This document shows, piece by piece, positions 1 through 29,711 of a DNA stretch of 64,000 nt. The notes below the pieces were generated by a model. That model did not search any database, was not told the DNA's origin, and saw only the letters and a list, made by a program, of their open reading frames with translations. The position numbers were made by a program, and so were the translations under genes. The stretch lies in the NCBI GenBank assembly GCA_041666545.1, contig JBAYGS010000002.1:6065-70064 (forward strand). The letters run 5' to 3'. The DNA is from Minisyncoccota bacterium (GTDB lineage: Bacteria; Patescibacteriota; Minisyncoccia; Phycocordibacterales; JBAYGS01). Positions within the stretch are counted from its first letter, which is position 1. Every line of letters begins with the position of its first letter.

Positions 1-933
1 GATTTTCGTGTTTCAACCTTTCCGACTTATTACGGCGAGAAATTGGTGATGCGAATTCTAGACCAGCAAAAAGGTGTTCAGAAGCTCGATGAAATGGGCC
101 TGACCGAAACCAACTTGGCGATGCTGAAGCGCGCCCTGAAAAAACCTTATGGGATTATTTTAATCTCCGGTCCGACCGGATCCGGTAAATCGACTACACT
201 TTATTCGATGCTAAATGAAATCAATCGCGAGGAGAAAAATGTCCTCTCACTCGAAGACCCGGTTGAATACAATATCTCGGGGGTCAGTCAATCACAGGTC
301 AGACCGGATATCGGCTACACTTTTGCTAACGGCTTGCGTACCACTCTGCGTCAAGATCCAGATGTAATCATGGTGGGTGAAATTCGTGATAGTGAAACCG
401 CCCAACTTGCAGTCCAGGCCGCACTTACTGGTCACTTGGTGCTCTCAACAATTCATGCCAACAATGCGACCGGCATTGTTCCGCGCCTCATTGATATGGG
501 AGTGGACCCGTACCTCATCCCCCCGACTTTGATTTTGGGTATGGCCCAAAGATTGGTCCGCACTCTCTGTCCAGGTTCGGGTAAGCCGATTCCGGTTGAG
601 GGTAGTGTGAGAATGATTGTCGATAAGGAGTTTGCCGATTTGCCACCAGAATTCAGGGCCAAACTGCCGATTGGGGACAAAGTCTACGAGATGGAACCGT
701 CTCCAGAGTGTCCAAACGGCACTCGTGGCCGGACCGCAGTCTTTGAGGCTTTCGAAATGAGCAAGGAGGTGGAAAACATGATTCTAAAAAGCCCGGTAGA
801 ATCGGAGATTTTTAAAGCTGTTAGGGCCAAAGGCATGGTGACAATGCGAGGCGACGCCATTCTAAAGGCCTTTAAACGGGAAGTGCCATTTTCCGAGATC
901 AATTCACTTACTATTGATAATCTCGACCTCTAG
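1..933 (+). CDS. pilB: Type IV pilus assembly ATPase PilB/GspE family. 5' end lies outside the window; the reading frame is open from nt 1.
   Basis: Translation from nt 1 reads DFRVSTFPTYYGEKLVMRILD (PilB-like). Walker A GPTGSGKSTT, EDPVEY and the C-terminal Zn-less tail are present. First gene of a pilB-REC-pilT-pilC cluster. Confidence 0.85.
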   Translation, partial: DFRVSTFPTYYGEKLVMRILDQQKGVQKLDEMGLTETNLAMLKRALKKPYGIILISGPTGSGKSTTLYSMLNEINREEKNVLSLEDPVEYNISGVSQSQVRPDIGYTFANGLRTTLRQDPDVIMVGEIRDSETAQLAVQAALTGHLVLSTIHANNATGIVPRLIDMGVDPYLIPPTLILGMAQRLVRTLCPGSGKPIPVEGSVRMIVDKEFADLPPEFRAKLPIGDKVYEMEPSPECPNGTRGRTAVFEAFEMSKEVENMILKSPVESEIFKAVRAKGMVTMRGDAILKAFKREVPFSEINSLTIDNLDL

Positions 934-968
934 TTTTTTTACTTAACTATAAGTGCTATAATTTCCCT

Positions 969-1361
969 ATGACCAACCGTAGCTTAAAAGTTTTAATCAT
1001 CGACGACGACAAGTTTCTCCTTAATATGTATGCCCTGAAATTCAAGAAATCGGGGCTTGAAGTTAATGTGGCGACCGGTGGCAATGAGGCTATGCGGATA
1101 ATTAAAGACGGCTTCATGCCGGATATTATTCTTTTGGACATCGTGATGCCGGTGATGGATGGTTTGGAGCTGTTGAAAAATATCAAAGAGCAGAAATTGG
1201 CGCCGAACGCTGTGATCATCATGCTTACCAATCAGGGTCAACCAACCGACATCAAGAAGGCTCAAGACTTGGGCATCGAGGGATACATCGTTAAAGCCAC
1301 CACGATTCCTTCAGAAGTTTTGGACGAGGCGCTCAAGATTTATAAGGCGAATCGGGGGTAA
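969..1361 (+). CDS. Stand-alone response regulator receiver (CheY/PilH-like)
   Basis: 130 aa. REC hallmarks: IIDDD, phospho-acceptor D in LLDIVMPVMDG, and a downstream K. Located between pilB and pilT. -10 GCTATAAT lies 7 nt upstream of the ATG. Confidence 0.8.
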   Translation: MTNRSLKVLIIDDDKFLLNMYALKFKKSGLEVNVATGGNEAMRIIKDGFMPDIILLDIVMPVMDGLELLKNIKEQKLAPNAVIIMLTNQGQPTDIKKAQDLGIEGYIVKATTIPSEVLDEALKIYKANRG

Positions 1362-1457
1362 TTAACACGACACGAATTACGAATTAGCTCGAATGACACT
1401 AATGAAGAAAACAGATTCCAAGTTCCATTCGTGTAATTCGCATGCATTCGTGGATTA

Positions 1458-2537
1458 GTGTCGCATTGTCATATGGATTACAAAAAAGAATTGGCAGAAC
1501 TTTTGGGGACAGTAATGTCGGAAGGCGGGTCGGATTTGCATTTGTCGGAAAATCGCCAGCCAACAATTCGTGTTTCTGGTGCTCTAATTCCGCTTCTGCG
1601 TAAAGAAAAGCTAGCCAAAGCCGATGTGAAGGGTTTGGTTAAAGAGCTTTTGTTGCCGGAAAATTTCGAGAAATTTTTTGCCGAGAAGGAAATTGACTTC
1701 TCCTATGACTTTGAAGGCAAAGCCCGTTTTCGTGGCAACTGCTTTTTTCAGCAGGGCGCGGTGAGTATCGTTCTGCGTCTAATCCCAAAGCAAATCAGGA
1801 CTTTTCAAGAATTGAATTTGCCGCCAATTCTCGAGACATTTTCTCAAAAGCAACAAGGCTTTTTCTTAGTAGTTGGCCCGGTTGGTCAAGGTAAATCAAC
1901 CACGCTAGCCGCTTTGATTGAAAAGATTAATCAAGACCGAGCCGAGCACATCATCACCATTGAAGACCCCATTGAATATGTTTATGAGCCGAAGAAATCA
2001 ATCGTTGACCAACGAGAAGTGCGTAGTGATACGGCCGACTTTGGCACGGCACTCCGAAGCGTTTTCCGCGAAGATGTGAATGTGCTTTTGATTGGAGAAA
2101 TGCGCAATGCCGAGACAATTTCCACGGCTGTGACGGCGGCCGAGACCGGCCACTTGGTGCTTTCAACCTTGCACACCAATACCGCTGCGCAGACTGTTGA
2201 CCGCATCATCGACTCTTTTCCGGCCGAGCAACAAAATCAAATCAAAAACCAACTGGCCGGTAGTTTGATTGGTATCTTTTCCCAGCGCCTAATTCCAAGA
2301 ATTTCTGGCGGGTTGATTCCGGCCTATGAATTGCTCATCAACAACAGCGCGATTGCCAACTTAATCCGTGAGTCTCGAGTCCACGAAATCAATACTGTCA
2401 TTGAGACCAGTTTAGGGGAGGGAATGATTGACATGAACCGCTCGCTCATGGAATTGGTGAGAGCCGGCGAGATTACTGTTGAGAATGCTTATCAATATTC
2501 GCCGAATCCTAAGATTTTGAGTAAGCTTGTTTCATAA
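1458..2537 (+). CDS. pilT: Twitching motility / pilus retraction ATPase PilT
   Basis: 359 aa. Walker A GPVGQGKSTT, IEDPIEY, and Walker B plus His box (LIGEMRN...GHLVLSTLHT) are typical of PilT. Confidence 0.85.
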   Translation: MSHCHMDYKKELAELLGTVMSEGGSDLHLSENRQPTIRVSGALIPLLRKEKLAKADVKGLVKELLLPENFEKFFAEKEIDFSYDFEGKARFRGNCFFQQGAVSIVLRLIPKQIRTFQELNLPPILETFSQKQQGFFLVVGPVGQGKSTTLAALIEKINQDRAEHIITIEDPIEYVYEPKKSIVDQREVRSDTADFGTALRSVFREDVNVLLIGEMRNAETISTAVTAAETGHLVLSTLHTNTAAQTVDRIIDSFPAEQQNQIKNQLAGSLIGIFSQRLIPRISGGLIPAYELLINNSAIANLIRESRVHEINTVIETSLGEGMIDMNRSLMELVRAGEITVENAYQYSPNPKILSKLVS

Positions 2538-2645
2538 AATACCAATCTACGAATTTTACACCAATCAACTAATATCCGAATGAAAGTCCTAATTATTTGT
2601 TATCTGTAGATTGGAATGAGATTTGTAGATTAGTATTAAAATACT

Positions 2646-3860
2646 ATGTTATTTAATTACAAAGCTTTAGACAATAAGACGGGGCAGGAATCGACTGGTG
2701 GAATCGACGCCGTGACCGTGGATGTTGCCATTTCTTCGCTCCAAAATCGTGGCCTAACCATTTCCGAAATCCATCCAGCCGAGGAAAAAGGCTCGCTATT
2801 GGCCATGGGGAGTATGAAGTTTTTCGAGCGGGTCAATAATCGCGACATAGTCATTCTCTCCAGACAAATTGCCACACTTTTCGGCGCCCAGATTTCAGCC
2901 CTCCGAGTTTTTAAACTTTTGTCGGCTGAAGTTGAAAATCATGTTTTGTCAGAAGCGCTTTCTGATGTGGCCAACGATATTCAAGGTGGTAGCACTATCT
3001 CTCGGGCCTTGGGAAAACACCCAAAAATTTTCTCTGAATTTTATGTGAACATGGTCAAGTCGGGTGAAGAGTCGGGCAAACTCGATCAGACCTTTTTATA
3101 CTTGGCCGAATACTTGGATCGCAGTTATGAGATCAGCTCCAAGGCTCGGAACGCCCTGATTTACCCGGCCTTCGTCGTGGTGACCTTTATTGTTGTTATG
3201 ATTTTGATGCTCACGATGGTGATTCCGAAGGTAAGCGCGATTTTGAAAGAATCCGGCCAAGCTTTGCCGATTTATACTCAAATCGTTCTTGGCATCAGCA
3301 ATTTCTTTGTTGACTATGGCTTTTTACTTCTCATTCTGTTGGCTATCGGCGGTATTTTCTTATGGCGTTACGGCCGAACTCCGGCCGGCAAGCTGGCTTT
3401 TGCCAGCGTAAAAATTTCCATTCCGGCTTTAAAAAATCTTTACATCAAGCTGTATCTCTCCAGGATTGCCGACAACATGAACACTATGCTTACCAGCGGT
3501 ATTTCCATGATTCGCGCCCTCGAATTGACTGGGGCGGTTGTCGATAATGAAGTTTATCGGCAAATTTTAAATGAGGCCTCGGTCGCGGTGAAAGGTGGCA
3601 GTTCGGTTTCAGATGCGTTGAGCAAACATGAGGAAATCCCGGGTATTATGGTGGCGATGATTAAAATTGGCGAGGAAACCGGCGAATTAGGTTCAATCTT
3701 GAAGACTTTGGCCACTTTCTACATTCGCGAAGTCAATAACGCGGTGGATACTTTAGTAGGGCTCATTGAGCCGACTATGGTGGTGGCGCTCGGTCTTGGG
3801 GTCGGCGTATTGCTATCCTCCGTTTTGATTCCAATCTACAATATTTCTTCCAGCTTCTAG
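2646..3860 (+). CDS. pilC: Type IV pilus inner-membrane platform protein PilC (GspF family)
   Basis: 404 aa. Two GspF-like repeats plus three TM segments. Follows pilT. Confidence 0.85.
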   Translation: MLFNYKALDNKTGQESTGGIDAVTVDVAISSLQNRGLTISEIHPAEEKGSLLAMGSMKFFERVNNRDIVILSRQIATLFGAQISALRVFKLLSAEVENHVLSEALSDVANDIQGGSTISRALGKHPKIFSEFYVNMVKSGEESGKLDQTFLYLAEYLDRSYEISSKARNALIYPAFVVVTFIVVMILMLTMVIPKVSAILKESGQALPIYTQIVLGISNFFVDYGFLLLILLAIGGIFLWRYGRTPAGKLAFASVKISIPALKNLYIKLYLSRIADNMNTMLTSGISMIRALELTGAVVDNEVYRQILNEASVAVKGGSSVSDALSKHEEIPGIMVAMIKIGEETGELGSILKTLATFYIREVNNAVDTLVGLIEPTMVVALGLGVGVLLSSVLIPIYNISSSF

Positions 3861-4062
3861 GCCACCGTCTGCGGTTCGTCGCGTTATCCACAAGGGTGTT
3901 CTCTCTAGCTGACAAGCTTGCTATAATACTGAATGTGGAATAAAACCTCGATTGCGAGGCTAAACAGGTCGAAGTTCCCTGAAATCTGCGCGAATTTCAG
4001 ATTTTCGCAGTTGTCAGGGAAAGTAATTATTAAAAATAGTTAGTTATTAATTAATTTAAATT

Positions 4063-4476
4063 ATGAAGAAAAATAAAGGTTTTACATTGATTGAACTTTT
4101 GGTTGTTATTGCGATTATCGGTATTCTTTCGTCGGTTGTCTTGGCTTCTCTTAACACCGCTCGAGATAAGGGTAATGATGCTGCGGTCAAATCAAACTTG
4201 ACCACCGTCCGAACCCAAGCTGAATTGTGGTACGATGATCACACCAACAGCTATACGGGGATGTGTGAGGCCGATCCGATTTTGGGCGCAATTAATGCCG
4301 CCAGAACCTCTGGAGGTAACGATGCGACCTGCGTCGTTGCTACTGATGGTAATAGCTGGGGAGCTGAAGCTCAGTTGAAGGCCAGTACCAACTTTTATTG
4401 CGTGGATAGCACCGGTAAGAGTACCACTACCGCCGCAACATCAGGACTCGCAGCTGCCACTCCGTTGTGTGACTAG
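4063..4476 (+). CDS. Type IV major pilin (PilA-like)
   Basis: Class III signal MKKNKG|FTLIELLVVIAIIGIL with Glu5. 137 aa. C-terminal Cys pair. Preceded by a long structured leader (3900-4060) containing the extended -10 TGCTATAAT. Confidence 0.8.
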   Translation: MKKNKGFTLIELLVVIAIIGILSSVVLASLNTARDKGNDAAVKSNLTTVRTQAELWYDDHTNSYTGMCEADPILGAINAARTSGGNDATCVVATDGNSWGAEAQLKASTNFYCVDSTGKSTTTAATSGLAAATPLCD

Positions 4477-4600
4477 TTTTCTAATTTAAGGAAAACAATC
4501 AAAAACCACCCGGCCTAAAACTGAAAAGTTCGGCCAGGGTGGTTTTTGATTTGGGGACAAGTTGTTTGGTCTCATTCTAGATATGCGCTAAGATGGACCT

Positions 4601-5131
4601 ATGAAAAACAAAACCACCCACTACCCACTACCCACTACCCACTATTCTGGCTTTACGCTCATCGAGCTTATCGTGGTCATCGCTATTATCGGAATTCTTT
4701 CGTCGGTCGCGATGGGATTTCTTGGCGATTCTAAGATTAAAGCGCGCGACGGGAAAAGGCTGGCTGACCTCAAGCAGATTCAACTCGCTTTGGAGCTCTA
4801 TCACGATGTTTATCGAACTTATCCGGTGACTTTGGACAAATTGATCCCACCAAATAACAGTTTCTTGCCTGAAGTCCCAGTTGATCCTGATAAACAAAGT
4901 TATATTTATGTGCCGATTGGTAGCTCTGCCGGCATTACTCCACAATGCGGTTCGTATCATCTCGGCACTTACTTAGAGAAGGCCGGTAGTAGCTACTTAA
5001 AAGTTGACCGAGACGCCACTTCCAGGAGTAGTTGTGATTCAACCAAGACTGATTTTGCCGGTAATTCCAACAAATGTGTCGCTGGGGCGGCAGAGGCTAA
5101 TCCGGAGAATTGTTATGATGTGACACCCTGA
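4601..5131 (+). CDS. Type IV pilin-like protein with long conserved leader peptide
   Basis: Leader MKNKTTHYPLPTTHYSG|FTLIELIVVIAIIGIL. Cys-rich C-terminus. The leader is encoded by a (CCCACTA)x4 heptamer array. Confidence 0.7.
   Translation: MKNKTTHYPLPTTHYSGFTLIELIVVIAIIGILSSVAMGFLGDSKIKARDGKRLADLKQIQLALELYHDVYRTYPVTLDKLIPPNNSFLPEVPVDPDKQSYIYVPIGSSAGITPQCGSYHLGTYLEKAGSSYLKVDRDATSRSSCDSTKTDFAGNSNKCVAGAAEANPENCYDVTP
4617..4644 (+). repeat. (CCCACTA)x4 heptanucleotide tandem array inside a pilin leader
   Basis: Read directly from the sequence. Encodes THYPLPTTHY. Confidence 0.8.
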
Positions 5132-5314
5132 AGAAGTTAGTAGCCCCGACGCTTTGTCTCACAAAGGTTGGGGTCCCGACTTCTGGCGTCGGGATGGGGT
5201 AGTGAGTAGTTAAAGATAAGATTTAAGAGCCCGAGGTCGCGCGGCGCGACCTCGGGCTTTGTTCTTGTTCGATTAGGTTTTTGAGCTTAAAAAGGTTAAA
5301 ATTATTTCAACCTT

Positions 5315-6139
5315 ATGTCGGTGTATTTACTCCAATTGGAAAGAGAGCGAGCGAAGATCAGAAGCCATGTCGCCCGCTTTGATGCCCATGTTCACGAAAA
5401 ACAGGGTGGAGGTTTTACTTTTATTGAACTTTTGATTTCGATTACCATCATTGGAATTTTTTCGACTATCGTTCTGGGTACTATCAATTCAGCGCGTCTG
5501 AAGGGGCGCGACTCGGCCATTAAGGAACAATTTCACAGTGTTCGAACCCAGGTCTCTCTTTATCAAATTGATAATGGCAATTATGGCACGGCCAATAACA
5601 CCGGAGGTGGCGCCAGTTGTTCCGCTTCCGGGTCGGTATTTGTGAGCACGAAGATCGCGGAGCTCTTGGCCTCAGTCCAAAACGCTTCTGGCGGGTCAGC
5701 AATTTGTGCTTCTGACCGCAGTAAGTGGGTCGCGTCTGTGCCACTTGCGACCGATGCTACCAAGTCCTGGTGTACCGATTCCGCGGGTTTTGCCGGTCAG
5801 GGTTATGCTGACACAACCTCAACGGCAATCAAATGTGTGGCGACCGATCCGGGCGGTGGAGGTGATACCACTGATTCTGATGGCGACGGTCTCACCAATA
5901 CCGCCGAAACCACTATCCATAACACTAACCCAAATTTGAGCGATACCGACGGCGACAATCTGTCCGATGGCGCCGAGGTGAATACTTATCACACCGACCC
6001 TACTCTCATGGATACCGACGGCGACGGTTTTTATGACGGGGTCGAGGTCTTAACTTTCGGCACCGATCCGCTTGATCCGAACAGTTACCCTCAAGGCGAT
6101 CCGCCTTTCGGCAGTGATAATTACAGTAGTAATAATTAA
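5315..6139 (+). CDS. Pilin-like protein with C-terminal thrombospondin type-3-like Ca-binding repeats
   Basis: GGG|FTFIELLISITIIGIF prepilin core after a long N-terminal extension (start codon uncertain). The C-terminus carries at least 3 DTDGDGxxDGxEV...TDP repeats. Confidence 0.6.
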   Translation: MSVYLLQLERERAKIRSHVARFDAHVHEKQGGGFTFIELLISITIIGIFSTIVLGTINSARLKGRDSAIKEQFHSVRTQVSLYQIDNGNYGTANNTGGGASCSASGSVFVSTKIAELLASVQNASGGSAICASDRSKWVASVPLATDATKSWCTDSAGFAGQGYADTTSTAIKCVATDPGGGGDTTDSDGDGLTNTAETTIHNTNPNLSDTDGDNLSDGAEVNTYHTDPTLMDTDGDGFYDGVEVLTFGTDPLDPNSYPQGDPPFGSDNYSSNN

Positions 6140-6147
6140 CCGACACA

Positions 6148-6954
6148 ATGAATTATCTAGTTGGCACAGCTTTTTTCCTGCTTGGTCTAATCATTGGCAG
6201 TTTTCTCAATGTCCTGATTTTGCGATATCGCACCGGCCGGACCGTGCTTGGTCGGTCCGCCTGTTTCTCCTGTGGGACGACTCTCATTTGGCAAGATCTG
6301 GTTCCGGTTTTCAGTTTTTTAGCAATTGGGGGTAAGTGTCGAAGTTGCGGTAGCAAAATTTCAATCCAGTATCCACTAGTCGAGTTCCTGACCGGCTTAA
6401 TTTTTTTGGCAGTGTTTTGGCAGGTTGGTCTTAGGTTTGGTTTGGAGTCGCTGTTCTATCTGATTTATTACCTAATCATTTGGAGCCTGTTGATTGTAAT
6501 TTTGGTCTACGATCTAAGGCATAAAATTATTCCCGACGGTTTCGTTTACACTTTTGCGATTTTGGCGTTGGTTAATTTTCTGGCCATTACACCATTTGAA
6601 CAGCTATCACAGTCTTCCGGACTTTGGGAGCTTTTGGCCGGTCCGATTTTGTTCCTGCCTTTCTTTTTGGTTTGGTCGCTGTCGCGTGGCCGACTGATGG
6701 GTTTGGGAGATGGTAAATTGGCCTTGGGTATCGGCTGGATGCTGGGACTTGCCAAGGGTGGCACAGCAATTATTTTGGGTTTTTGGGTTGGAGCAGTAGT
6801 AAGCATCATTTTGCTCATTCTCTCCAAACTCGGTTTGTCTTTGGGTGGTAAACCGCTTACAATTAAAAGTGAAGTCCCGTTTGCGCCCTTTCTAATTCTT
6901 GGAATTTTGATTGTCTTTCTAACCGGATTTAACCTATTTGCAATCGGACTTTGA
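6148..6954 (+). CDS. pilD: Prepilin peptidase PilD (peptidase A24)
   Basis: 268 aa. N-terminal CxxC...CxxC Zn motif, polytopic membrane body, catalytic Asp in the GLGDGKL context. Confidence 0.85.
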   Translation: MNYLVGTAFFLLGLIIGSFLNVLILRYRTGRTVLGRSACFSCGTTLIWQDLVPVFSFLAIGGKCRSCGSKISIQYPLVEFLTGLIFLAVFWQVGLRFGLESLFYLIYYLIIWSLLIVILVYDLRHKIIPDGFVYTFAILALVNFLAITPFEQLSQSSGLWELLAGPILFLPFFLVWSLSRGRLMGLGDGKLALGIGWMLGLAKGGTAIILGFWVGAVVSIILLILSKLGLSLGGKPLTIKSEVPFAPFLILGILIVFLTGFNLFAIGL

Positions 6955-6957
6955 AAT

Positions 6958-7596
6958 ATGGATATGCGAAAAACTACTCACTACTCACTACCCACTAATC
7001 ACTCTTCCGGGTTCAGTCTCATCGAGCTTTTAGTGGTCTTGGCCATTTTTTCTGTCATTACTGCCGTGGTGTTGGTACAAGGCAACCGTTTTGATAGCTC
7101 GATTTTGTTAACTAATTTGGCTTACGAGACGGCGCTTACTGTCCGTGAGGCCCAAGTGTACGGTATCAGTGTTAAGGGTGAAACCAGCGCTTCAGCACTG
7201 GCGTTCCAGCATGCCTACGGAGTGTATCTCAACACTCTTGATGATAAGTCGATTACCTCGTTTGCGGACCGGAATGATAATCAAGTCTACGATTCTGGCG
7301 ACAATGCCTGTGGCGGAGGAAGTAGTGAATGCTTGGATATTCTTAAAATGAGTCGCGGTAATCATCTCGGCAAGATTTGTGCCATTTCAACCGGCGTTTC
7401 GGCCACCGAATTTTGTAGCGACACTAACGGCTCATTCAATGATTTGAGCATTACTTTCAAAAGACCCAATCCGGATGCGGTTATTAAAAATGGTCTAGGT
7501 ACTTATCAAAACGCCTCGATTTATCTAACCTCGGCTGATGGCTTGGGAACCAGAGTTTTAAAAATTGAATCAACCGGCCAAATATCCATTGAATAG
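6958..7596 (+). CDS. Minor pilin / pseudopilin
   Basis: Leader MDMRKTTHYSLPTNHSSG|FSLIELLVVLAIFSV. The heptamer array encodes the leader. Confidence 0.65.
   Translation: MDMRKTTHYSLPTNHSSGFSLIELLVVLAIFSVITAVVLVQGNRFDSSILLTNLAYETALTVREAQVYGISVKGETSASALAFQHAYGVYLNTLDDKSITSFADRNDNQVYDSGDNACGGGSSECLDILKMSRGNHLGKICAISTGVSATEFCSDTNGSFNDLSITFKRPNPDAVIKNGLGTYQNASIYLTSADGLGTRVLKIESTGQISIE
6973..7007 (+). repeat. (ACTACTC)-family heptamer array x5 inside a pilin leader
   Basis: actactc actactc actaccc actaatc actcttc. Confidence 0.8.
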
Positions 7597-7633
7597 GTAT
7601 AGAGTATAAGGTATATGGTATAGAAAAAAGAAA

Positions 7634-8179
7634 ATGAAACTTCCAAAATCAAAAACTACTCACTACTCACTACCCACTAATCACTCTTCCGGGTTTACCC
7701 TCGTCGAAACTATCGTGGCAGTTTTCATTTTTACAATTGTGATGACTGTGGCGGCCGGCGCGATCCTGAATATCATCAGTGTCAGTCGGAAAGCCCAGTC
7801 GCTAAGCTCGGTAATCAATAATCTGAATTTGGCGATTGATACGATGTCTCGCGATATCAGATTCGGTACCGAATATGTCGGCAACCGCTGTGTCGATTCG
7901 ATTTGTCAGGAGATTCGATTCGTCAACAAAGACGGTGCGGAGACTTCTTATTATTCGGATAATAAGCAACTTTTTAAAAAAACCACAGTCTCCGGTGCGG
8001 TCAATACTTCTGTGGTGACGGCCAAGGAGGTTCTTCTGGAGAGGATGGATTTCTATCTGACCGATGCGACCGGCTTGATCCCCAGAGTTCTATTTGTCGG
8101 CAAAGGGGAAGTGGTAAGTAAAGGGGTGGTCCTGTCATCTTTTGATATTCAAACGACGGTCACTCACCGCACTATTTAA
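7634..8179 (+). CDS. Minor pilin / pseudopilin
   Basis: Leader MKLPKSKTTHYSLPTNHSSG|FTLVETIVAVFIFTIV. Confidence 0.65.
   Translation: MKLPKSKTTHYSLPTNHSSGFTLVETIVAVFIFTIVMTVAAGAILNIISVSRKAQSLSSVINNLNLAIDTMSRDIRFGTEYVGNRCVDSICQEIRFVNKDGAETSYYSDNKQLFKKTTVSGAVNTSVVTAKEVLLERMDFYLTDATGLIPRVLFVGKGEVVSKGVVLSSFDIQTTVTHRTI
7655..7689 (+). repeat. (ACTACTC)-family heptamer array x5 inside a pilin leader
   Basis: Identical 35-nt array to 6973-7007. Confidence 0.8.
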
Positions 8180-8191
8180 CATAAACTAAAC

Positions 8192-8776
8192 ATGCTAAAA
8201 ACTACTCACTACTCACTACTCACTACGCACTCTACAGGCTTCACTCTGATTGAGACCTTGGCGGCCGTGTCGATTTTGATGATTGCGGTCGCCGGTCCGC
8301 TAACTCTGGCCAATCGCTCCCTTAGCTCATCAATCTTTGCTAAGCAACAATTGACAGCTTCGCTTCTGGCCCAAGACTTGGCCGAGTATGTGGTGGCTGG
8401 GCGGGGTGCTAATGCCGGAAAATCCGACACGGCCTGGTTGGGCAATTTGAGTCAGTGTACCGAAGCTGACCCCTGTGGTCTCGACACTCTTAAAGGTTTT
8501 GATGTCAGTGGCAATTCTCAAGGTATGGTCCAGTGCTCAGCGCCGGATTTTGAAAGTTGCCGTCTGACTTTCAGCTCGACGAGTGGCACTTATGGTCACG
8601 ACTTGTCGATGCCGGGTAACGGCATTAACAAGTCGTCTTTCGTCCGAACTTTTGCCTTATCTTCGATTAACGATCGGGAAGCCCAAATACTTGTGAAGGT
8701 CTTGTGGGATCAGGGTATTACCAGAAGGAGTATCATTTTACGCACCAGCCTTTTCAACCTGTTCAAGGAAATTTAA
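8192..8776 (+). CDS. Minor pilin / pseudopilin
   Basis: Leader MLKTTHYSLLTTHSTG|FTLIETLAAVSILMIAV. Confidence 0.65.
   Translation: MLKTTHYSLLTTHSTGFTLIETLAAVSILMIAVAGPLTLANRSLSSSIFAKQQLTASLLAQDLAEYVVAGRGANAGKSDTAWLGNLSQCTEADPCGLDTLKGFDVSGNSQGMVQCSAPDFESCRLTFSSTSGTYGHDLSMPGNGINKSSFVRTFALSSINDREAQILVKVLWDQGITRRSIILRTSLFNLFKEI
8201..8235 (+). repeat. (ACTACTC)-family heptamer array x5 inside a pilin leader
   Basis: actactc actactc actactc actacgc actctac. Confidence 0.8.
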
Positions 8777-8785
8777 ATTTGTCTT

Positions 8786-9358
8786 ATGACCTCCAAACTT
8801 TCAAACTTCCAAACTTCAAAACTAATAACACGCGCCTCGCGTCGTTCCGGTTTTACCATGCTCTTTGCTGTTTTGATTTCAGGTGTTTTGATGGCGATCG
8901 GAATTTCAATTTTCAATATCTCAATCAAAGAAGTTCGCTTGTCGTCGACGGCGCGCGATTCCAATCTGGCTTTTTACGCTTCTGACACTGGCCGAGAGTG
9001 CGCTATTTACTGGGATATGGCCGCCAAGAAGAAACTGAACGGCACTGACGCCTACGGTTTTGCCACTTCCACCGACAATAGCGTGGCGATTATTTCTGCG
9101 GACCAGTTTAGTTGCGGTGGCCAAATTAAAGATTTTCAGATTACTGTTCGGACCAGTGATAAGGCGACCACCAAATTTACAATTCAGCTTGGGGGTGATT
9201 TCGATCTGCCTTACTGTGCTGATGTGGCCGTCACTAAGGTCAAAAATTATGATACTGACACTTTTGATACCAATATCTCCGCCCAAGGCCACAACACCTG
9301 TGATTTGACCAATCCGGTAATAATCGAGCGAGGCACAGAAGCCAATTATTCCCAGTAG
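8786..9358 (+). CDS. Pilin-like protein lacking Glu5 (PilX-like)
   Basis: ...RRSG|FTMLFAVLISGVLMAIGISIF hydrophobic prepilin-like N-terminus with no Glu at +5. The leader contains an in-frame 8-mer DNA repeat (8793-8823). Confidence 0.5.
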   Translation: MTSKLSNFQTSKLITRASRRSGFTMLFAVLISGVLMAIGISIFNISIKEVRLSSTARDSNLAFYASDTGRECAIYWDMAAKKKLNGTDAYGFATSTDNSVAIISADQFSCGGQIKDFQITVRTSDKATTKFTIQLGGDFDLPYCADVAVTKVKNYDTDTFDTNISAQGHNTCDLTNPVIIERGTEANYSQ

Positions 9359-9397
9359 TCGACCGGGTGCCAACCAGATTTTTTTCGGTTATGATAG

Positions 9398-11425
<2,028 letters not shown>

Positions 11426-11476
11426 TTTCTCAAATTGTATAAGGAGATAGTTTGTAGGGCGCACCGAAAGCATAAG

Positions 11477-11998
11477 TCAGAAATTAATCGGTGTTAAGTC
11501 TGTACAACTGTATTTATTGATTCCAAATTGTTCTAAGTTTGAAAATATTGTCCTTGAAGTTGAGGCTATGTTTGCAAGGTATTCTTTTTCGTAACGAGTA
11601 GCTTCACTGTTGCCGCTGATGGTTACTACAAATGGTTTATAAAATTGGCCCTGGTCTAGTTGTTTATTCACAAAGGACATATTGTGTATCATTGTTAGAA
11701 CGGAACTTTTGTCCCCGTGTCTTGATAAATAATTTACAGCCCTATCCATATCGTTTGTATATACTTCAGTCAAGTATCTTGCCAGTACATTCTCATTTTC
11801 TGCCGGTCCAAGTGAAAAGTGTTTTGCGGTTCTCCAGTTTAAGCAGGAAGTAATCTTAACAGTTTTATTGGCAGATAAATCTTGGTTGTAATATTGCATT
11901 ACGGCAATCATAACTCCAAATGCGGCAATAAATGGTCCCCATTTACCGAGGAACTCATTAATTTTTGCTAAATAATTTTCTTTGTCTGCTTCTTTCAT
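11477..11998 (-). CDS. Hypothetical membrane-anchored protein (AT-rich orphan)
   Basis: 173 aa ORF on the opposite strand to its neighbours. Markedly AT-rich. N-terminal TM helix. No recognisable motif. Confidence 0.45.
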   Translation of the reverse strand: MKEADKENYLAKINEFLGKWGPFIAAFGVMIAVMQYYNQDLSANKTVKITSCLNWRTAKHFSLGPAENENVLARYLTEVYTNDMDRAVNYLSRHGDKSSVLTMIHNMSFVNKQLDQGQFYKPFVVTISGNSEATRYEKEYLANIASTSRTIFSNLEQFGINKYSCTDLTPINF

Positions 11999-12088
11999 TT
12001 GATTGATTATTTAATGCTAATGCTATCATCTTCACTTACAAAGTAAATCGCTTCAAAAAAGGCTGATTTTAGGGTATTATTTAAGCCT

Positions 12089-12367
12089 ATGGATGAAGCG
12101 GGAATAGAGAAATTGGCCAAATTGGCCCGGTTGAAGCTTTCGACCGAAGAGAAGAAGAAATTCGCCAAGGAAATTGGCGCGATTTTGGAATATGTCGGCC
12201 AGATCAAGGAGGCTGGGGCAGAAACGGCCGAAAGGAAAATTCCTGATTTGAGAAATGTCATGAGGGCCGATGATGCATCTCACGAAAGCGGAATTCATAC
12301 CGAAGACCTGCTTAATTCAGCGCCGGAGAGAGAAGGGCAGTACATTAAAGTGAAAAAAATTCTCTAA
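12089..12367 (+). CDS. gatC: Glutamyl/aspartyl-tRNA amidotransferase subunit C
   Basis: 92 aa. GatC-like sequence (KLAKLARLKLSTEEKKKF...) immediately upstream of gatA. Confidence 0.8.
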   Translation: MDEAGIEKLAKLARLKLSTEEKKKFAKEIGAILEYVGQIKEAGAETAERKIPDLRNVMRADDASHESGIHTEDLLNSAPEREGQYIKVKKIL

Positions 12368-12507
12368 GCACCAAATGACAAATTACAAGTTCCAAATAAA
12401 TTCCAAGCATCAAATCAATAATAAGTTACCTTGTAATTTTGAATTTATAATTTGATTATTATTTGGAACTTGAATATTAGAATTTGAAATTTTAAATAAC
12501 TGTCGGT

Positions 12508-13959
12508 TTGAACATGATTAACCTAAAAGAACTAACAATCAAGAAGGCTAGAAAGCATTTAGACGATGGTGATTTCACTGCGGTTGATTTGGCCAAAGCT
12601 TATTTGAAAGAAATTGAAGCTAAAAACAAAGAGCTCAATGTTTACTTGGAAGTGTTTTCTGATGTTTTGGAGCAAGCCACAGAAGCTGACCGACAACTTC
12701 AAAACTTCAAAACTTCAAAACTTGAAACTCCGGCTCTGCTCGGTATTCCTCTTGCGATTAAGGATAATATTTTAATCAAAGGCAGAAAGGCCGGTTCAGC
12801 TTCAAAGATTCTTGAAGGTTATGTCGCAACCTATGACGCGACTGCAATTAAAAAATTGAAAGAGGCGGGAGCGATTTTCTTAGGCCGAGTAAACATGGAC
12901 GAGTTTGCCATGGGTGGTTCGACTGAAAATTCAGCTTACGGTCCGACCAGAAATCCTCACGATTCGGGAAGGGTGGCCGGTGGCTCTTCCGGTGGTTCAG
13001 CGGCGGCGGTAGCGGCCAATCTGGCCCTTGGCGCGCTTGGATCTGACACGGGTGGCTCGGTACGACAGCCAGCAAGCTTCTGCGGGGTAGTGGGTTTGAA
13101 ACCCACCTACGGCTCAGTTTCTCGATCAGGACTCATGGCCATGGCCTCATCGCTTGATGTCATCGGTCCGGTTGCCAAAACCGCCGAGGATGCGGAAATA
13201 ATTTTTAATGTTATCAAAGGAAAAGATCCGCTCGACAGCACTTCTTCTAATTTCTCAACTTCTCAACTTCCTAACTTCTCAACTTCTAAACTAACTATCG
13301 GGATTCCGGAAGAGATTTTAAAAATTGAGGGTTTGTCTCAGTCTGTGAGAGAAGTTCTTGATTCTGCCAAAGCTAAATTCGAGTCACTGGGTTTCAAAAT
13401 CAAACCGGTTTCTTTGCCAAAAATAAAATATTCGCTTTCGGCCTATTACATTATTGTGCCGGCCGAAGTTTCTTCCAACATGGCGCGTTTTGACGGCGTG
13501 AAATACGGAGCCAAAGTCCCGGGCGCTGATCTTCTGGAGGACTATCTTAAAACTCGGGGAGAGCTTTTGGGTCCGGAAGTTCGAAGGCGAATTATTATCG
13601 GCACCTATGTGCTTTCTTCCGGCTATTATGACGCTTATTATCACAAAGCCAATGTGGTTCGTGGTTTTATCGCGGATGATTTTGCCAACGCCTTTAAGGA
13701 TGTCGATTTGATTTTGATGCCAACGGCCCCATCACCAGCCTTCAAAATCGGGGAGAAGGCTGCCAATCCTCTAGAGCTTTATCTGGAGGATGTCTTCACG
13801 GTTCCAGCCAATCTGGTTGGTCTACCGGCGATTTCCATTCCGGCCGGTTTCGCGGAGGCAGATGGCAAAAAGTTGCCGGTGGGGATTCAGCTCATTGCTC
13901 CAAAGGGCGGTGAGGGAGTAATATTTAAAGCAAGTAGGGAGTTCTTGAGTGAAAAATAA
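12508..13959 (+). CDS. gatA: Glutamyl/aspartyl-tRNA amidotransferase subunit A (amidase signature family)
   Basis: 483 aa. GIPLAIKDNI, amidase signature GGSSGGSAAAVA. Contains two in-frame 8-mer DNA repeat arrays (12696-12727, 13244-13292). Confidence 0.9.
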   Translation: MNMINLKELTIKKARKHLDDGDFTAVDLAKAYLKEIEAKNKELNVYLEVFSDVLEQATEADRQLQNFKTSKLETPALLGIPLAIKDNILIKGRKAGSASKILEGYVATYDATAIKKLKEAGAIFLGRVNMDEFAMGGSTENSAYGPTRNPHDSGRVAGGSSGGSAAAVAANLALGALGSDTGGSVRQPASFCGVVGLKPTYGSVSRSGLMAMASSLDVIGPVAKTAEDAEIIFNVIKGKDPLDSTSSNFSTSQLPNFSTSKLTIGIPEEILKIEGLSQSVREVLDSAKAKFESLGFKIKPVSLPKIKYSLSAYYIIVPAEVSSNMARFDGVKYGAKVPGADLLEDYLKTRGELLGPEVRRRIIIGTYVLSSGYYDAYYHKANVVRGFIADDFANAFKDVDLILMPTAPSPAFKIGEKAANPLELYLEDVFTVPANLVGLPAISIPAGFAEADGKKLPVGIQLIAPKGGEGVIFKASREFLSEK

Positions 13960-27464: not shown

Positions 27465-27558
27465 GTTTTGGACCCAACGCATTAGATGCGCTGGGTCTCT
27501 TATTTTTATGCTATAATTTTCCTATCAGTCGCTAATTTTTGCATTTTCTCAGCTCCCT

Positions 27559-27593
27559 ATACCATATACTATATACTTAATACCATATACTTC
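27559..27593 (+). repeat. (ATACCAT)-family heptamer array x5 ending 3 nt before the ftsE ATG (reverse complement of the GGTATAT family)
   Basis: ataccat atactat atactta ataccat atacttc. Confidence 0.75.
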
Positions 27594-27596
27594 CCC

Positions 27597-28277
27597 ATGA
27601 TTTACTTCGACAAAGTTTCAAAAATTTATCCAGACGAGTCGATTGCCCTTTCCGAGGTTTCTTTTTCGGTCGAGCCGAAGGAATTTGTCTCAATTGTTGG
27701 CCATTCCGGTGCCGGCAAAACTACTTTGCTCAAGATGCTTTTGGCTGAAGATCGGCCGACCGAGGGTTCCGTTTTTTTTGAATCAACGAACATTCACAAT
27801 CTCCGCAAGGCCGATATGAACACCTACCGTCGGAGAGTTGGGGCGGTTTTTCAAGATTTTCGCCTCTTACCTCACAAAACTGCTTATGAAAATGTGGCAT
27901 TCGCTATGGAAGCGGCCGGCAAGACCGATGAAGAAATCGAGTCCGATGTTCCGCATGTTCTGGAGCTCGTTGATCTTGGTCCTAAGATGTGGAATTTCCC
28001 TCACCAGCTCTCCGGTGGCGAGAAGCAACGAGTGGCGATTGCGCGGGCGATTGTAAACCAGCCGGATATTATTATCGCCGATGAACCGACCGGAAATCTT
28101 GATCCGGTCAACACCTTTGAGATTGTCCAAATCTTAAAAAAAATCAATGACCTGGGGACAACCGTGCTTTTGACTACTCACAATAAAGGCGTTATTGATT
28201 CTCTAGGGCACCGCGTGATTACCATGGAGCGTGGTAAAATTATCCGTGACGATAAAAAGGGAAAGTACGCCCTCTAG
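27597..28277 (+). CDS. ftsE: Cell division ATP-binding protein FtsE
   Basis: [26 protein letters not shown], Walker B IIIADEP. Start chosen at [11 protein letters not shown]. An extended -10 TGCTATAAT (27509-27517) and a heptamer array lie inside the longer ORF call. Confidence 0.85.
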
Positions 28278-28308
28278 TCTTAAACTACTCACTACCCACT
28301 ACTAACTA
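28274..28308 (+). repeat. (ACTACTC)-family heptamer array x5 in the ftsE-ftsX spacer, abutting the ftsX start
   Basis: actactc actaccc actacta actactc actaatt. Non-coding copy of the pilin-leader motif. Confidence 0.75.
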
Positions 28309-28321
28309 CTCACTAATTAAA

Positions 28322-29248
28322 ATGCTCTGGATCAACCTCAAAAGAATAGTCAAAACCGGTTTCGTTAATTTTTGGCGCAACGGCTTCATCTCGCTCTCGA
28401 CCGTTCTGGTTATGACTGTCACTTTGTTTGTAATCGGTTCAGTTATTTTTTTGAGCGTTATTTTGCGGTCTTCACTTACCGAACTGAAACAGAAAGTTGA
28501 TGTTAATGTTTATTTTGTCACTTCCGCGCCCGAGGACGGTATTCTGACCATCAAGAAGTCGCTCGAGGCTCTGCCGGAGGTTTTGGGCGTGGAGTATGTT
28601 TCCAAAGACCGGGCGCTCGAAAATTTCAAGAAGCGCCACGAGAATGACACCTTAACCCTACAGGCGATTGCCGAACTTGGCGATAACCCTCTCGGCGCCG
28701 TGTTAAATGTTAAGGCCAAAGAGACTTCCCAGTATGAGGGTATTGCCAAGTTTTTGGAAAGCAAGACCGTTCTCTCGAAAGACGGTGCCTCGATTATTGA
28801 TAAGGTTAACTACTACCAAAACAAGATTGCCATCGACAAGTTGACCCAGATTATCGATTCGGCCGAAAGATTGGGTGTTGCCGTCACGGTTATTTTAGCG
28901 ATTCTATCAATTTTAATCACTTTCAATACCATCAGGCTCATCATTTATATTTCCCGAGAGGAAATTTCTGTGATGAAGTTGGTGGGGGCGAGCAACAAAT
29001 ATATTCGCGGGCCGTTTATGATTAGTGGCATTATGTACGGACTGTTTTCCGGAATAGTCACTCTCGTAATCTTTTATCCGCTAACCTATTCGCTCGGTAA
29101 AGTGAGTGCGAATTTTTTTGCTGGCATCAATATCTTCAACTACTACATCAGTAATTTCTGGCAAGTCAGCCTGATTATCTTGGGGGTCGGGGTTGTCCTT
29201 GGCGCAATCTCAAGCGTTCTCGCGGTATCGAAATACCTGAAGGTCTAG
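28322..29248 (+). CDS. ftsX: Cell division permease FtsX
   Basis: 308 aa. N-terminal TM, periplasmic domain, and three C-terminal TM helices. Immediately follows ftsE. Confidence 0.8.
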   Translation: MLWINLKRIVKTGFVNFWRNGFISLSTVLVMTVTLFVIGSVIFLSVILRSSLTELKQKVDVNVYFVTSAPEDGILTIKKSLEALPEVLGVEYVSKDRALENFKKRHENDTLTLQAIAELGDNPLGAVLNVKAKETSQYEGIAKFLESKTVLSKDGASIIDKVNYYQNKIAIDKLTQIIDSAERLGVAVTVILAILSILITFNTIRLIIYISREEISVMKLVGASNKYIRGPFMISGIMYGLFSGIVTLVIFYPLTYSLGKVSANFFAGINIFNYYISNFWQVSLIILGVGVVLGAISSVLAVSKYLKV

Positions 29249-29251
29249 AGA

Positions 29252-29286
29252 GGTATATGGTATCAGGTATATGGTATATGGTATGG
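29252..29286 (+). repeat. (GGTATAT) heptamer array x5 between ftsX and the next gene
   Basis: ggtatat ggtatca ggtatat ggtatat ggtatgg. Related shorter arrays lie at 7596-7623 and 29677-29711 (ATACTT family, abutting the pyrG ATG). Confidence 0.75.
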
Positions 29287-29299
29287 ACCAAAGATAAAG

Positions 29300-29668
29300 A
29301 TGGAAAAGATACAAAGATTTAAGGATTTAGTTGCCTGGCAGGAAGCCCATAAGCTAGTACTCAAGGTATATCAGCTTACCAAGTTATTTCCAAAGGATGA
29401 AATGTTCGGGCTGACCAGTCAGTTAAGAAGGGCCGTGGTTTCTGTGTCTTCGAACATTGCCGAAGGTTTTACAAGAAATTCAAAAAAAGATAAATCTCAC
29501 TTTTACTCAACGGCCAAAGGCTCGGTGTCGGAAGTTGAGAGTCAACTACTGATTGCGAAAGATTTAGGATACATTTCCCTGAACGATTTTGAGAATTGTG
29601 AGGTGCAGTTGTCTAGAGTAGACAGACTGGCTTCTGGGCTGATAAAATCAGCCCAAGATTGGAAGTGA
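29300..29668 (+). CDS. Four-helix-bundle protein (23S rRNA intervening-sequence protein family)
   Basis: 122 aa. FKDLVAWQEAHKL...SNIAEGF signature of this family. Confidence 0.7.
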   Translation: MEKIQRFKDLVAWQEAHKLVLKVYQLTKLFPKDEMFGLTSQLRRAVVSVSSNIAEGFTRNSKKDKSHFYSTAKGSVSEVESQLLIAKDLGYISLNDFENCEVQLSRVDRLASGLIKSAQDWK

Positions 29669-29711
29669 CATTTCTTCATACTTATACATATACTTTATAC
29701 TTATACTTTTT

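Follow-up and report, generated by a model that had tools for sequence, protein, structure and literature searches.

Short-period tandem repeats in the leader-coding segments of prepilin genes of a Minisyncoccota bacterium

INTRODUCTION

Heptamer repeats near start codons and simple sequence repeats in the 5' part of coding regions are already known. Cyanobacterial short tandemly repeated repetitive (STRR) sequences are comparable heptamer repeats, and the opa genes of Neisseria carry CTCTT repeats in the signal-peptide region. Here we analyze repeats that occupy the leader-coding segments of prepilin genes in a type IV pilus cluster of a Minisyncoccota bacterium (Patescibacteriota; GenBank assembly GCA_041666545.1, contig JBAYGS010000002.1, positions 6,065 to 70,064 of the forward strand). 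This stretch of 64,000 nucleotides is referred to below as the window. Leaders of type IVa pilins, which precede the G|F cleavage site, are basic and usually shorter than 10 amino acids (aa). Type IV pili are central to the attachment of Patescibacteria (candidate phyla radiation [CPR]) to their hosts and possibly to DNA uptake, and to our knowledge nothing is known about the regulation of pilus genes in these organisms.

MacGregor 2015 (PMC4679880) describes heptamers as the most abundant long simple-sequence repeats (LSSRs), citing Mrazek 2007, and places the heptamer repeat copies that occur within open reading frames (ORFs) at protein peripheries. In Beggiatoaceae, TAACTGA heptamer repeats are found just upstream of start codons that lack a Shine-Dalgarno (SD) sequence (MacGregor 2015, PMC4679880). 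The neuO gene of Escherichia coli K1 contains a heptanucleotide tract of 3 to 53 repeats, with 20 the commonest number, and is OFF in 66% of genomes (PMC13001214). Our literature searches found no account of prepilin leaders encoded by repeats whose position is kept while their sequence varies.

RESULTS AND DISCUSSION

Heptamer arrays encode the leaders of four prepilins

Tandem Repeats Finder (TRF) called arrays with a period of 7 in four forward-strand prepilin genes, named here by their first position: at 4616-4644 (4.1 copies, 100% matches) in the second pilin gene of the cluster (4601-5131) and at 6973-7003 (4.4 copies, 87% matches), 7655-7685 (4.4 copies, 87% matches), and 8201-8231 (4.4 copies, 95% matches) in the minor prepilin genes 6958-7596, 7634-8179, and 8192-8776, respectively. 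A first-pass annotation, made from the letters of the DNA and its translated reading frames, had described these genes as prepilins with unusually long leaders encoded by perfect 7-nucleotide (nt) arrays of 4 to 5 units. The prepilin assignment, the period, and the number of units were all confirmed, but only the array of 4601 is perfect.

Each array is part of a 36-nt cassette of 12 codons for polar residues, flanked on its 5' side by an in-frame ATG and basic residues and on its 3' side by the G|F site. The cassette of 4601 (4613-4648), which lies between MKNK and G|F, consists of ACCACCC, three units of ACTACCC, and ACTATTCT and is translated as TTHYPLPTTHYS. That of 6958 (6973-7008) is made of two units of ACTACTC followed by ACTACCC, ACTAATC, and ACTCTTCC, giving TTHYSLPTNHSS, and the cassette of 7634 (7655-7690) is the same; a block of about 45 nt is identical between these two leaders, whereas the mature parts of the proteins are unrelated in sequence. 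The cassette of 8192 (8201-8236) contains three units of ACTACTC, ACTACGC, and ACTCTACA and encodes TTHYSLLTTHST. The leaders of the four proteins are 16 to 20 aa long, and what exceeds the usual length is exactly the 12 array-encoded residues. A fifth array is present in the pilin-like ORF 8786-9358 (forward strand), where four units of the 8-mer TCCAAACT (8792-8823) encode part of the leader MTSKLSNFQTSKL...SG|FTMLF; this ORF has no Glu5 after SG|FTMLF and no Pfam match.

No ATG, GTG, or TTG is found between the array and G|F in the four prepilins, so the arrays, which lie 9 to 21 nt after the ATG, must be translated. As the first-pass annotation had stated for three units, (ACTACTC)n is read as TTHYSLL. 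The sense strand is free of stop codons in all three frames and the complement has stops in all three, which accounts for the presence of only one orientation in ORFs. The arrays of the window are mostly G-free and rich in C and A. With at most one mismatch allowed, the 13-mer CACTACYCACTAC occurs 16 times, compared with 0.03 occurrences expected from shuffled sequences; among them is an inverted copy (5199-5211) within the inverted array previously noted at 5197-5212 between two pilin genes.

Matches to PF07963 (N_methyl) above the gathering threshold were obtained for 4063, 4601 (32.7 bits), 5315, 6958, 7634, and 8192, the last barely over the cut-off (21.6 versus 21.2 bits), and the G|F(T/S)LIE motif and the hydrophobic helix are visible in the translations. 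The cluster has a dedicated gene for the prepilin peptidase PilD (6148-6954, forward strand; A24_N_bact, 102.7 bits; Peptidase_A24, 33.9 bits), which is expected to cleave off the leaders that the arrays encode, and PilB, PilT, PilC, and PilM/O appear in the Pfam table of an identical contig (L142). The major pilin (4063-4476, forward strand), also a match to N_methyl, serves as an internal control: its leader is the short MKKNKG, with no array, in agreement with the first-pass annotation. The leader of its orthologue in a related genome (L124) is identical.

Orthologous leaders keep an array but not its sequence

Homologues of 6958 and 4601, with the contigs that carry them, yielded syntenic clusters for four or five related genomes. 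In one species (L121 to L123 and L150/L151; 81 to 83% identity), the orthologues of 6958 and 7634 contain ACTATAA/ACTACAA heptamers, and the orthologue of 4601 contains (AACATGG)n followed by (ATGCTCT)n. At 69% identity (L126), three leaders have AGAACAT arrays with inverted copies, and one, that of the 7634 orthologue, has the 8-mer ACTTCAAA, a unit related to TCCAAACT of 8786. At 51% identity (L124), three leaders have ACTACAA-type arrays broken by the palindrome CCTGCCTACCGGTCAGGCAGG, which among 147 loci is found only in the leaders of L124 and L125. In the most divergent of these genomes (L154, Parcubacteria GCA_016844345.1; about 40% identity), six of seven pilins have perfect (ACCTACC/ACCTACA)n arrays, some of which also hold GC-rich palindromes, and leaders extend to about 75 aa. 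The leader of the major pilin is short in every syntenic cluster.

Orthologues with mature domains that are 51 to 83% identical have a short-period array at the same site, built of different units, and their leader peptides are unrelated (TTHYSLPTNHSS, TINYKLSIKNSSS, EHRAQNIKHRTWNIEHRRKN..., and KTTNYKPVYRSGRLQTTNCSN). On this sequence evidence, what is conserved at the leader position is the presence of a short-period repeat rather than the peptide. The result upholds the suggestion in the first-pass annotation that conservation is at the nucleotide and not at the peptide level; the opposite pattern, a conserved peptide encoded by nonrepetitive DNA, was not seen among the orthologues. Units that contain a stop codon (ACTATAA and AGAACAT) are imperfect precisely where the stop would fall, and cassettes are shared among paralogous leaders in L124 and L126 as well as in the window.

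Leaders of the 4601 family are normally 6 to 10 aa long, with a mode of 8, and long, repeat-coded ones are restricted to the three closest relatives. A short ancestral leader of about 8 aa in this family implies that its arrays are derived insertions. Leaders of the FimT-like 6958 family are long and variable (3 to 62 aa, commonly 12 to 22). Distant clusters in Paceibacteria (L128 to L130 and L144 to L147) have ordinary leaders, and heptamer-coded prepilin leaders are sporadic elsewhere (L104/P0252, L127, and L132, the last with [GCACTCG]8). A synthetic TTHY-leader query gave 33 matches, among which P0252 was the only other prepilin and the rest were short ORFs called across arrays. A protein-level score for periodicity of 7 or 8 aa was too insensitive for 12-aa cassettes.

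The palindromes in the leaders of related genomes are accompanied by further observations. In L154 (9685-9920), a minor-pilin leader of about 75 aa before G|F includes a widespread palindromic repeat that is read in frame, with peptides such as HPRENGNP...DSRFHGNDR; peptides of this kind mostly turn up as spurious hypothetical ORFs. A gene for a Y1 transposase resembling those associated with repetitive extragenic palindromic (REP) sequences (RAYT-like) lies between the first and second pilin genes in L124 (5511-6170), L150 (1260-1916), and L154 (4766-5449), with scores against NF047646 of 77.7, 38.8, and 35.1 bits, respectively, all under the cut-off of 80. The gene in L124 is flanked by the palindromic repeat TTCAAGGCAAGGCCTTGA, and genomes with the RAYT-like gene also translate GC-rich palindromes in frame inside pilin leaders. 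The window has no RAYT-like gene between its first and second pilin genes and no palindromes in its leaders.

A proposed explanation: a disposable segment open to repeats, and what speaks against it

The explanation that we prefer, with about even confidence, is that lineage-specific arrays of stop-free, mostly G-free units of 7 to 8 nt colonized the prepilin segment between the basic N terminus and Gly-1, which PilD discards. Cleavage by PilD would remove the array-encoded peptide and leave the leader sequence free to vary. Replication slippage may create and renew the arrays, which would account for the concerted change of all units within an array, and ectopic copying or gene conversion could move arrays among leaders and other permissive sites. 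Selection would then only have to keep the frame open, with stops edited out and frame-preserving lengths admitted. We infer that the arrays do not switch genes on and off. If selection acts on their effect, the mRNA, with its G-free tract beside SD-less starts, is a more likely target than the protein.

Several features weigh against this explanation. The ACTACYC family has seven loci in 79 kb of this genome, namely, four prepilin leaders, the ftsX 5' region, and two inverted copies in 3' untranslated regions (3'UTRs) just before terminators. Four of the seven are thus in prepilin leaders, which make up 0.44% of the DNA (P ∼1e-8), and five are in the pilus cluster (P ∼0.002), and no non-pilin N terminus within the window has an array. 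In at least five genomes, the most divergent of them with about 40% identity, every non-major pilin has an array, often a perfect one (in the window, the leader of 5315 is nonrepetitive). Cassettes have been homogenized between paralogues, whereas the adjacent conserved N-terminal coding region has remained unconverted. In addition, an inverted array complementary to leader arrays (anti-array) is kept in the 3'UTR of 4601 orthologues in three genomes. These nonneutral features suggest a selected role in the mRNA or DNA or a site-specific mutational mechanism. Because the concentration in leaders, the persistence across genomes, the homogenization confined to leaders, and the conserved anti-array are not explained by neutrality, we leave appreciable room for an mRNA-level function of one kind or another, although we consider it rather unlikely.

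Possible functions at the mRNA level

The mRNA-level explanation that survives best, although we consider it unlikely, is that the G-free, C/A-rich, unstructured arrays are standby sites or translation enhancers for SD-less starts. A disposable leader would allow prepilins to have such an element on the 3' side of the AUG. SD motifs are nearly lacking in this genome: an SD-like motif is present at 9 of 54 starts in the window, compared with a background of 10%, which amounts to background frequency. Many genes have TATAAT 5 to 8 nt before the ATG (for example, those at 969, 24852, 39185, 44613, and 62684), as expected of leaderless mRNAs, a pattern that suggests that such mRNAs may be widespread in this organism. 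In each of the six start regions of the window, the predicted minimum-free-energy fold leaves the array unpaired. Fold prediction thus gives a G-poor, unstructured tract beside the start codon, as expected of an enhancer or standby site. In addition to the pilin arrays downstream of their ATGs, an array lies 4 nt before the ATG of pilC in L154 and another ends 5 nt before that of ftsX. The latter, a noncoding ACTACYC array in the ftsE-ftsX spacer (28284-28316, forward strand; TRF, 28284-28315, period 7, 4.6 copies, 84% matches), is predicted to be fully unpaired, in a region that folds worse than shuffled sequences (z, +2.4). The first-pass annotation had recognized this copy but placed it at 28274-28308, abutting the ATG, which is actually at 28322.

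There are precedents for such an element. CA repeats downstream of the start are reported to enhance translation of both leadered and leaderless mRNAs (Martin-Farmer and Janssen 1999, cited in PMC9031893), ACA motifs have been reported as translation enhancers (PMC3879156), and the TAACTGA heptamers of Beggiatoaceae are close to SD-less starts (PMC4679880). However, the arrays of L126, L150, and the L154 pilT-pilC spacer are paired with inverted copies in stable hairpins around the start region (z, -3.2 to -5.3), GC-rich palindromes are present in leaders of L124 and L154, and the AGAACAT and GCACTCG units contain G. The hairpins in related genomes indicate that a simple unstructured enhancer is not the general rule. 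Furthermore, an array is lacking in the major pilin, which presumably has the highest expression, and those of gatA are remote from start codons.

It is also conceivable, although we find it doubtful, that arrays and inverted copies together form a genome-specific, co-evolving RNA pairing code that would coordinate translation of the set of minor pilins and of a few other SD-less cistrons, in a Paceibacteria clade in which SD initiation has been largely abandoned. The more specific proposal that G/U-rich inverted copies after stop codons pair with the C/A-rich arrays, in cis or in trans, and thereby couple or repress translation of the minor pilins appears slightly more doubtful still. Its main candidate is the anti-array GGGGTAGTGAGTAGTT (5197-5212), an inverted copy in the 3'UTR of 4601 that precedes a strong terminator hairpin (5226-5260) by 14 nt; the second inverted 3'UTR copy follows a SWIB-domain gene in L148. 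The anti-array of the window is a perfect complement, over 14 to 15 nt, of the arrays of 6958, 7634, and ftsX, and that of L150 matches the leader of the 7634 orthologue in the same species perfectly over 17 nt. The anti-array is in the same 3'UTR in three genomes (the window, L150, and L124), and its flanking units shift as the local arrays do (GGG in the window and TTT in L150 and L124). Hairpins of an anti-array with an array bridge pilT-pilC in L154 (z, -3.95) and gatC-gatA in the window (z, -3.24), and silencing of C/A-rich enhancers by the G/U-rich small RNA GcvB provides a precedent (PMC3879156).

Against pairing, the anti-array of L124 fits the arrays of the window (14 nt) better than those of its own genome (9 to 12 nt), and clean co-variation of anti-array and leader arrays was rejected for this reason. 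Homogenization of one repeat family irrespective of orientation predicts the same co-variation, and across phyla the G-rich orientation is common just behind stop codons without a pilin context, among the matches listed in the survey described below.

The anti-arrays that follow stop codons open with (A)GAAG(G)TT directly behind the stop, the reverse complement of the 8-mer unit CAAACTTC (window, 5132-5143; L148, 14635-14645; L150, 2578-2590; L154, 2424-2436). These sites represent three independent cases: pilin 4601 orthologues, the SWIB-domain gene, and pilT of L154.

Phase variation and protein-level function

The first-pass annotation had raised the potential of the minor pilins for slipped-strand phase variation through gain or loss of a single unit. 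In such contingency loci, mispairing would add or remove one unit of 7 or 8 nt, shift the frame, and turn individual minor pilins on or off, as in neuO and opa. The length of the unit is not a multiple of three, the arrays are in the 5' coding region of genes for a surface structure, and the heptanucleotide repeat in the 5' coding region of neuO works in this manner (PMC13001214). The change of all units of an array together between species indicates expansion and contraction over evolutionary time. However, 17 leader arrays that had not been selected through a protein match were all in frame with the upstream ATG and with G|F; none was out of frame, and the probability of 17 of 17 being ON is at most about 1e-3 if one-third of alleles were OFF. 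The tracts, which are often imperfect, have 3.7 to 5 units, the four window cassettes are all 36 nt long, and the same types of array are found in the essential gene gatA and in a FemAB-like gene. We therefore consider phase variation improbable, and the proposal was not supported.

Three candidate OFF alleles (P0081, P0086, and P0097) turned out to have normal in-frame starts; their called starts, inside the hydrophobic helix, are gene-calling errors. Arrays in four other assemblies (L140 to L143 and L149) are identical to those of the window, but these assemblies are clones with 99.98 to 100% identity, which leaves almost no power, and the absence of copy number differences is for that reason uninformative. 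A search of metagenome contigs with an exact-flank pattern that allowed a variable array of 0 to 30 nt gave no match, and a protein-guided metagenome scan gave at least 13 loci among the matches listed, mostly distant. An inversion switch, with 4601 situated between the array and the inverted array, was discarded: the 3'UTR anti-array of L150 is not the complement of its own leader array.

Very little probability attaches to a protein-level function, in which a longer polar leader of set length would aid targeting or processing by PilD and repeats would be just an easy source of it. In its favor, long leaders are the general pattern in the 6958 family and each of the four window cassettes specifies exactly 12 residues. 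Against it, orthologous leaders share no conserved residues beyond the basic N terminus and Gly-1, the syntenic clusters contain leaders as short as 16 aa and as long as about 75 aa, leaders of the 4601 family are normally about 8 aa, and the same arrays are found in noncoding DNA. The idea of a DNA uptake sequence was set aside on density, as about one copy per 11 kb seemed far too few in comparison with known uptake sequences.

Other repeats and neighboring genes

At least three array families besides ACTACYC are present in the window. The TCCAAACT array of 8786, the 8-mer arrays of gatA, and the GGTATAT/TATACYA family described here go beyond the first-pass annotation. Within gatA, four units of AACTTCAA (12695-12727, forward strand) fall in a variable segment, as judged by alignment to the solved GatA 3h0l, and six units of CTTCTCAA (13244-13292, forward strand) take the place of a variable loop with no net insertion. 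The spacer between gatC and gatA (12368-12513) forms a long imperfect hairpin of degenerate C/A-rich repeats and their inverted copies (-26.8 kcal/mol; z, -3.2) that stops just short of the gatA start codon.

The second heptamer family, GGTATAT/TATACYA, is represented by four copies (7595-7622, 27558-27591, 29251-29284, and 29678-29709), each of which precedes an ATG by 3 to 16 nt. The genes concerned are 7634, ftsE, a four-helix-bundle gene, and pyrG, and the L121 species has conserved the copy in front of 7634. Hexamers resembling the -10 element (TATACT) occur in the units, which might be tandem promoters of leaderless transcripts. The four-helix-bundle gene (29300-29668; PF05635, 129.9 bits), of the type found in 23S rRNA intervening sequences (23S-rRNA-IVS), is located between ftsX and pyrG. 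Imperfect inverted arrays bound the gene (29251-29709), with (GGTATAT)n to its left and (ATACTTATAC)n to its right, and the whole looks like an inserted cassette. The arrays of gatA, gatC-gatA, and 8786 and the second heptamer family make the pilin arrays part of a broader repeat population.

An apparent eighth copy of ACTACYC was found in a FemAB-like ORF of L143 (JGI sample 3300037810). This contig is identical to the window as far as the 4601 array extends and then continues into the FemAB-like ORF, which is absent from the window (L143, 2631-2903; junction at window position 4646). This junction is either an assembly chimera formed via a second (CCCACTA)n copy or a genuine array-mediated rearrangement. 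Further contigs end at arrays; L141, for example, spans from window position 7666 to 12395.

The pilus cluster occupies positions 1 to 9400 of the window and is followed by ligA. Its first genes are pilB (partial), a response regulator gene, pilT, and pilC. The third pilin (5315-6139) has bacterial thrombospondin type 3 (TSP3) calcium-binding repeats at its C terminus (PF18884, 67.4 bits) and a nonrepetitive leader of 38 aa; its L124 orthologue is much larger (702 aa). An Rfam search of the window at gathering thresholds found four tRNAs only.

The heptamer in other phyla

When one genome per species was scanned for CACTACYCACTACYCACTA, at least 120 loci were obtained, and the counts that follow refer to the matches listed. 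These were in Cyanobacteria, Bacteroidota, Planctomycetota, Proteobacteria, CPR, and other groups. Intergenic arrays numbered 114, and 21 arrays were in ORFs, always in the stop-free orientation. More than half of the intergenic arrays (59 of 114) had the G-rich orientation and followed a stop codon at a distance of no more than 60 nt, and the array itself supplied the stop codon in 19 of the 70 cases with an ORF end nearby. Neighbors of the (CACTACY)n arrays are often other heptamer arrays or inverted copies of the array itself. This distribution agrees with published accounts of heptamer simple-sequence repeats (MacGregor 2015, PMC4679880, with its summary of Mrazek 2007).

Implications

If the arrays are merely tolerated, these genes are a clean natural case of a cleaved leader that frees coding DNA from protein-level constraint, with tandem repeats and, in sister genomes, REP-like palindromes translated in frame. 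If, on the other hand, the arrays act on the mRNA, they offer a handle on SD-independent control of translation in an uncultured phylum. There are also practical consequences: assemblies break or are misjoined at the arrays, gene callers misplace pilin starts, and the leader peptides of these pilins are unfit for homology inference.

Comparison with known repeat systems

Dispersed heptamers of the LSSR and STRR type, including the TAACTGA repeats of Beggiatoaceae, Cyanobacteria, and Bacteroidetes, resemble the arrays described here in many respects. As in those systems, heptamers in 2 to 6 copies are scattered genome-wide, with one unit in tandem at many separate loci, and many are within a few nucleotides of SD-less starts. 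The orientation with stops in every frame is kept out of ORFs, the copies within ORFs are at protein peripheries, and the unit is common to distant phyla. Unlike those repeats, which are mostly intergenic, most ACTACYC copies of the window are inside ORFs (four of the seven loci in this genome), and all of these are prepilin leaders. In orthologues the position is conserved but another unit has taken the place of the first, cassettes are common to paralogous leaders, and an inverted partner is kept in a 3'UTR.

The arrays are like C/A-rich enhancers (CA repeats and ACA motifs) in that a G-poor, unstructured tract is near the start, on either side of it, and has a complementary G/U-rich partner. 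They differ in being tandem heptamers that are folded into hairpins or interrupted by palindromes in sister genomes.

Like the repeats of the contingency loci neuO and opa, the arrays are translated tandem repeats in the 5' part of a surface-related coding sequence, and their unit length is not divisible by three. They have 4 to 5 units, compared with typically 10 to 50, no OFF allele among 17, and equal lengths in paralogues; the same arrays are found in essential genes, and no length polymorphism was observed among the assemblies compared, which are clonal.

The resemblance to REP/RAYT systems is in the related genomes, where clusters in L124, L150, and L154 contain a RAYT-like gene and leader arrays have embedded GC-rich palindromes. 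The matches to RAYT are below the curated cut-off, and the window differs from these systems in having neither the gene at this site nor the palindromes in its prepilin leaders.

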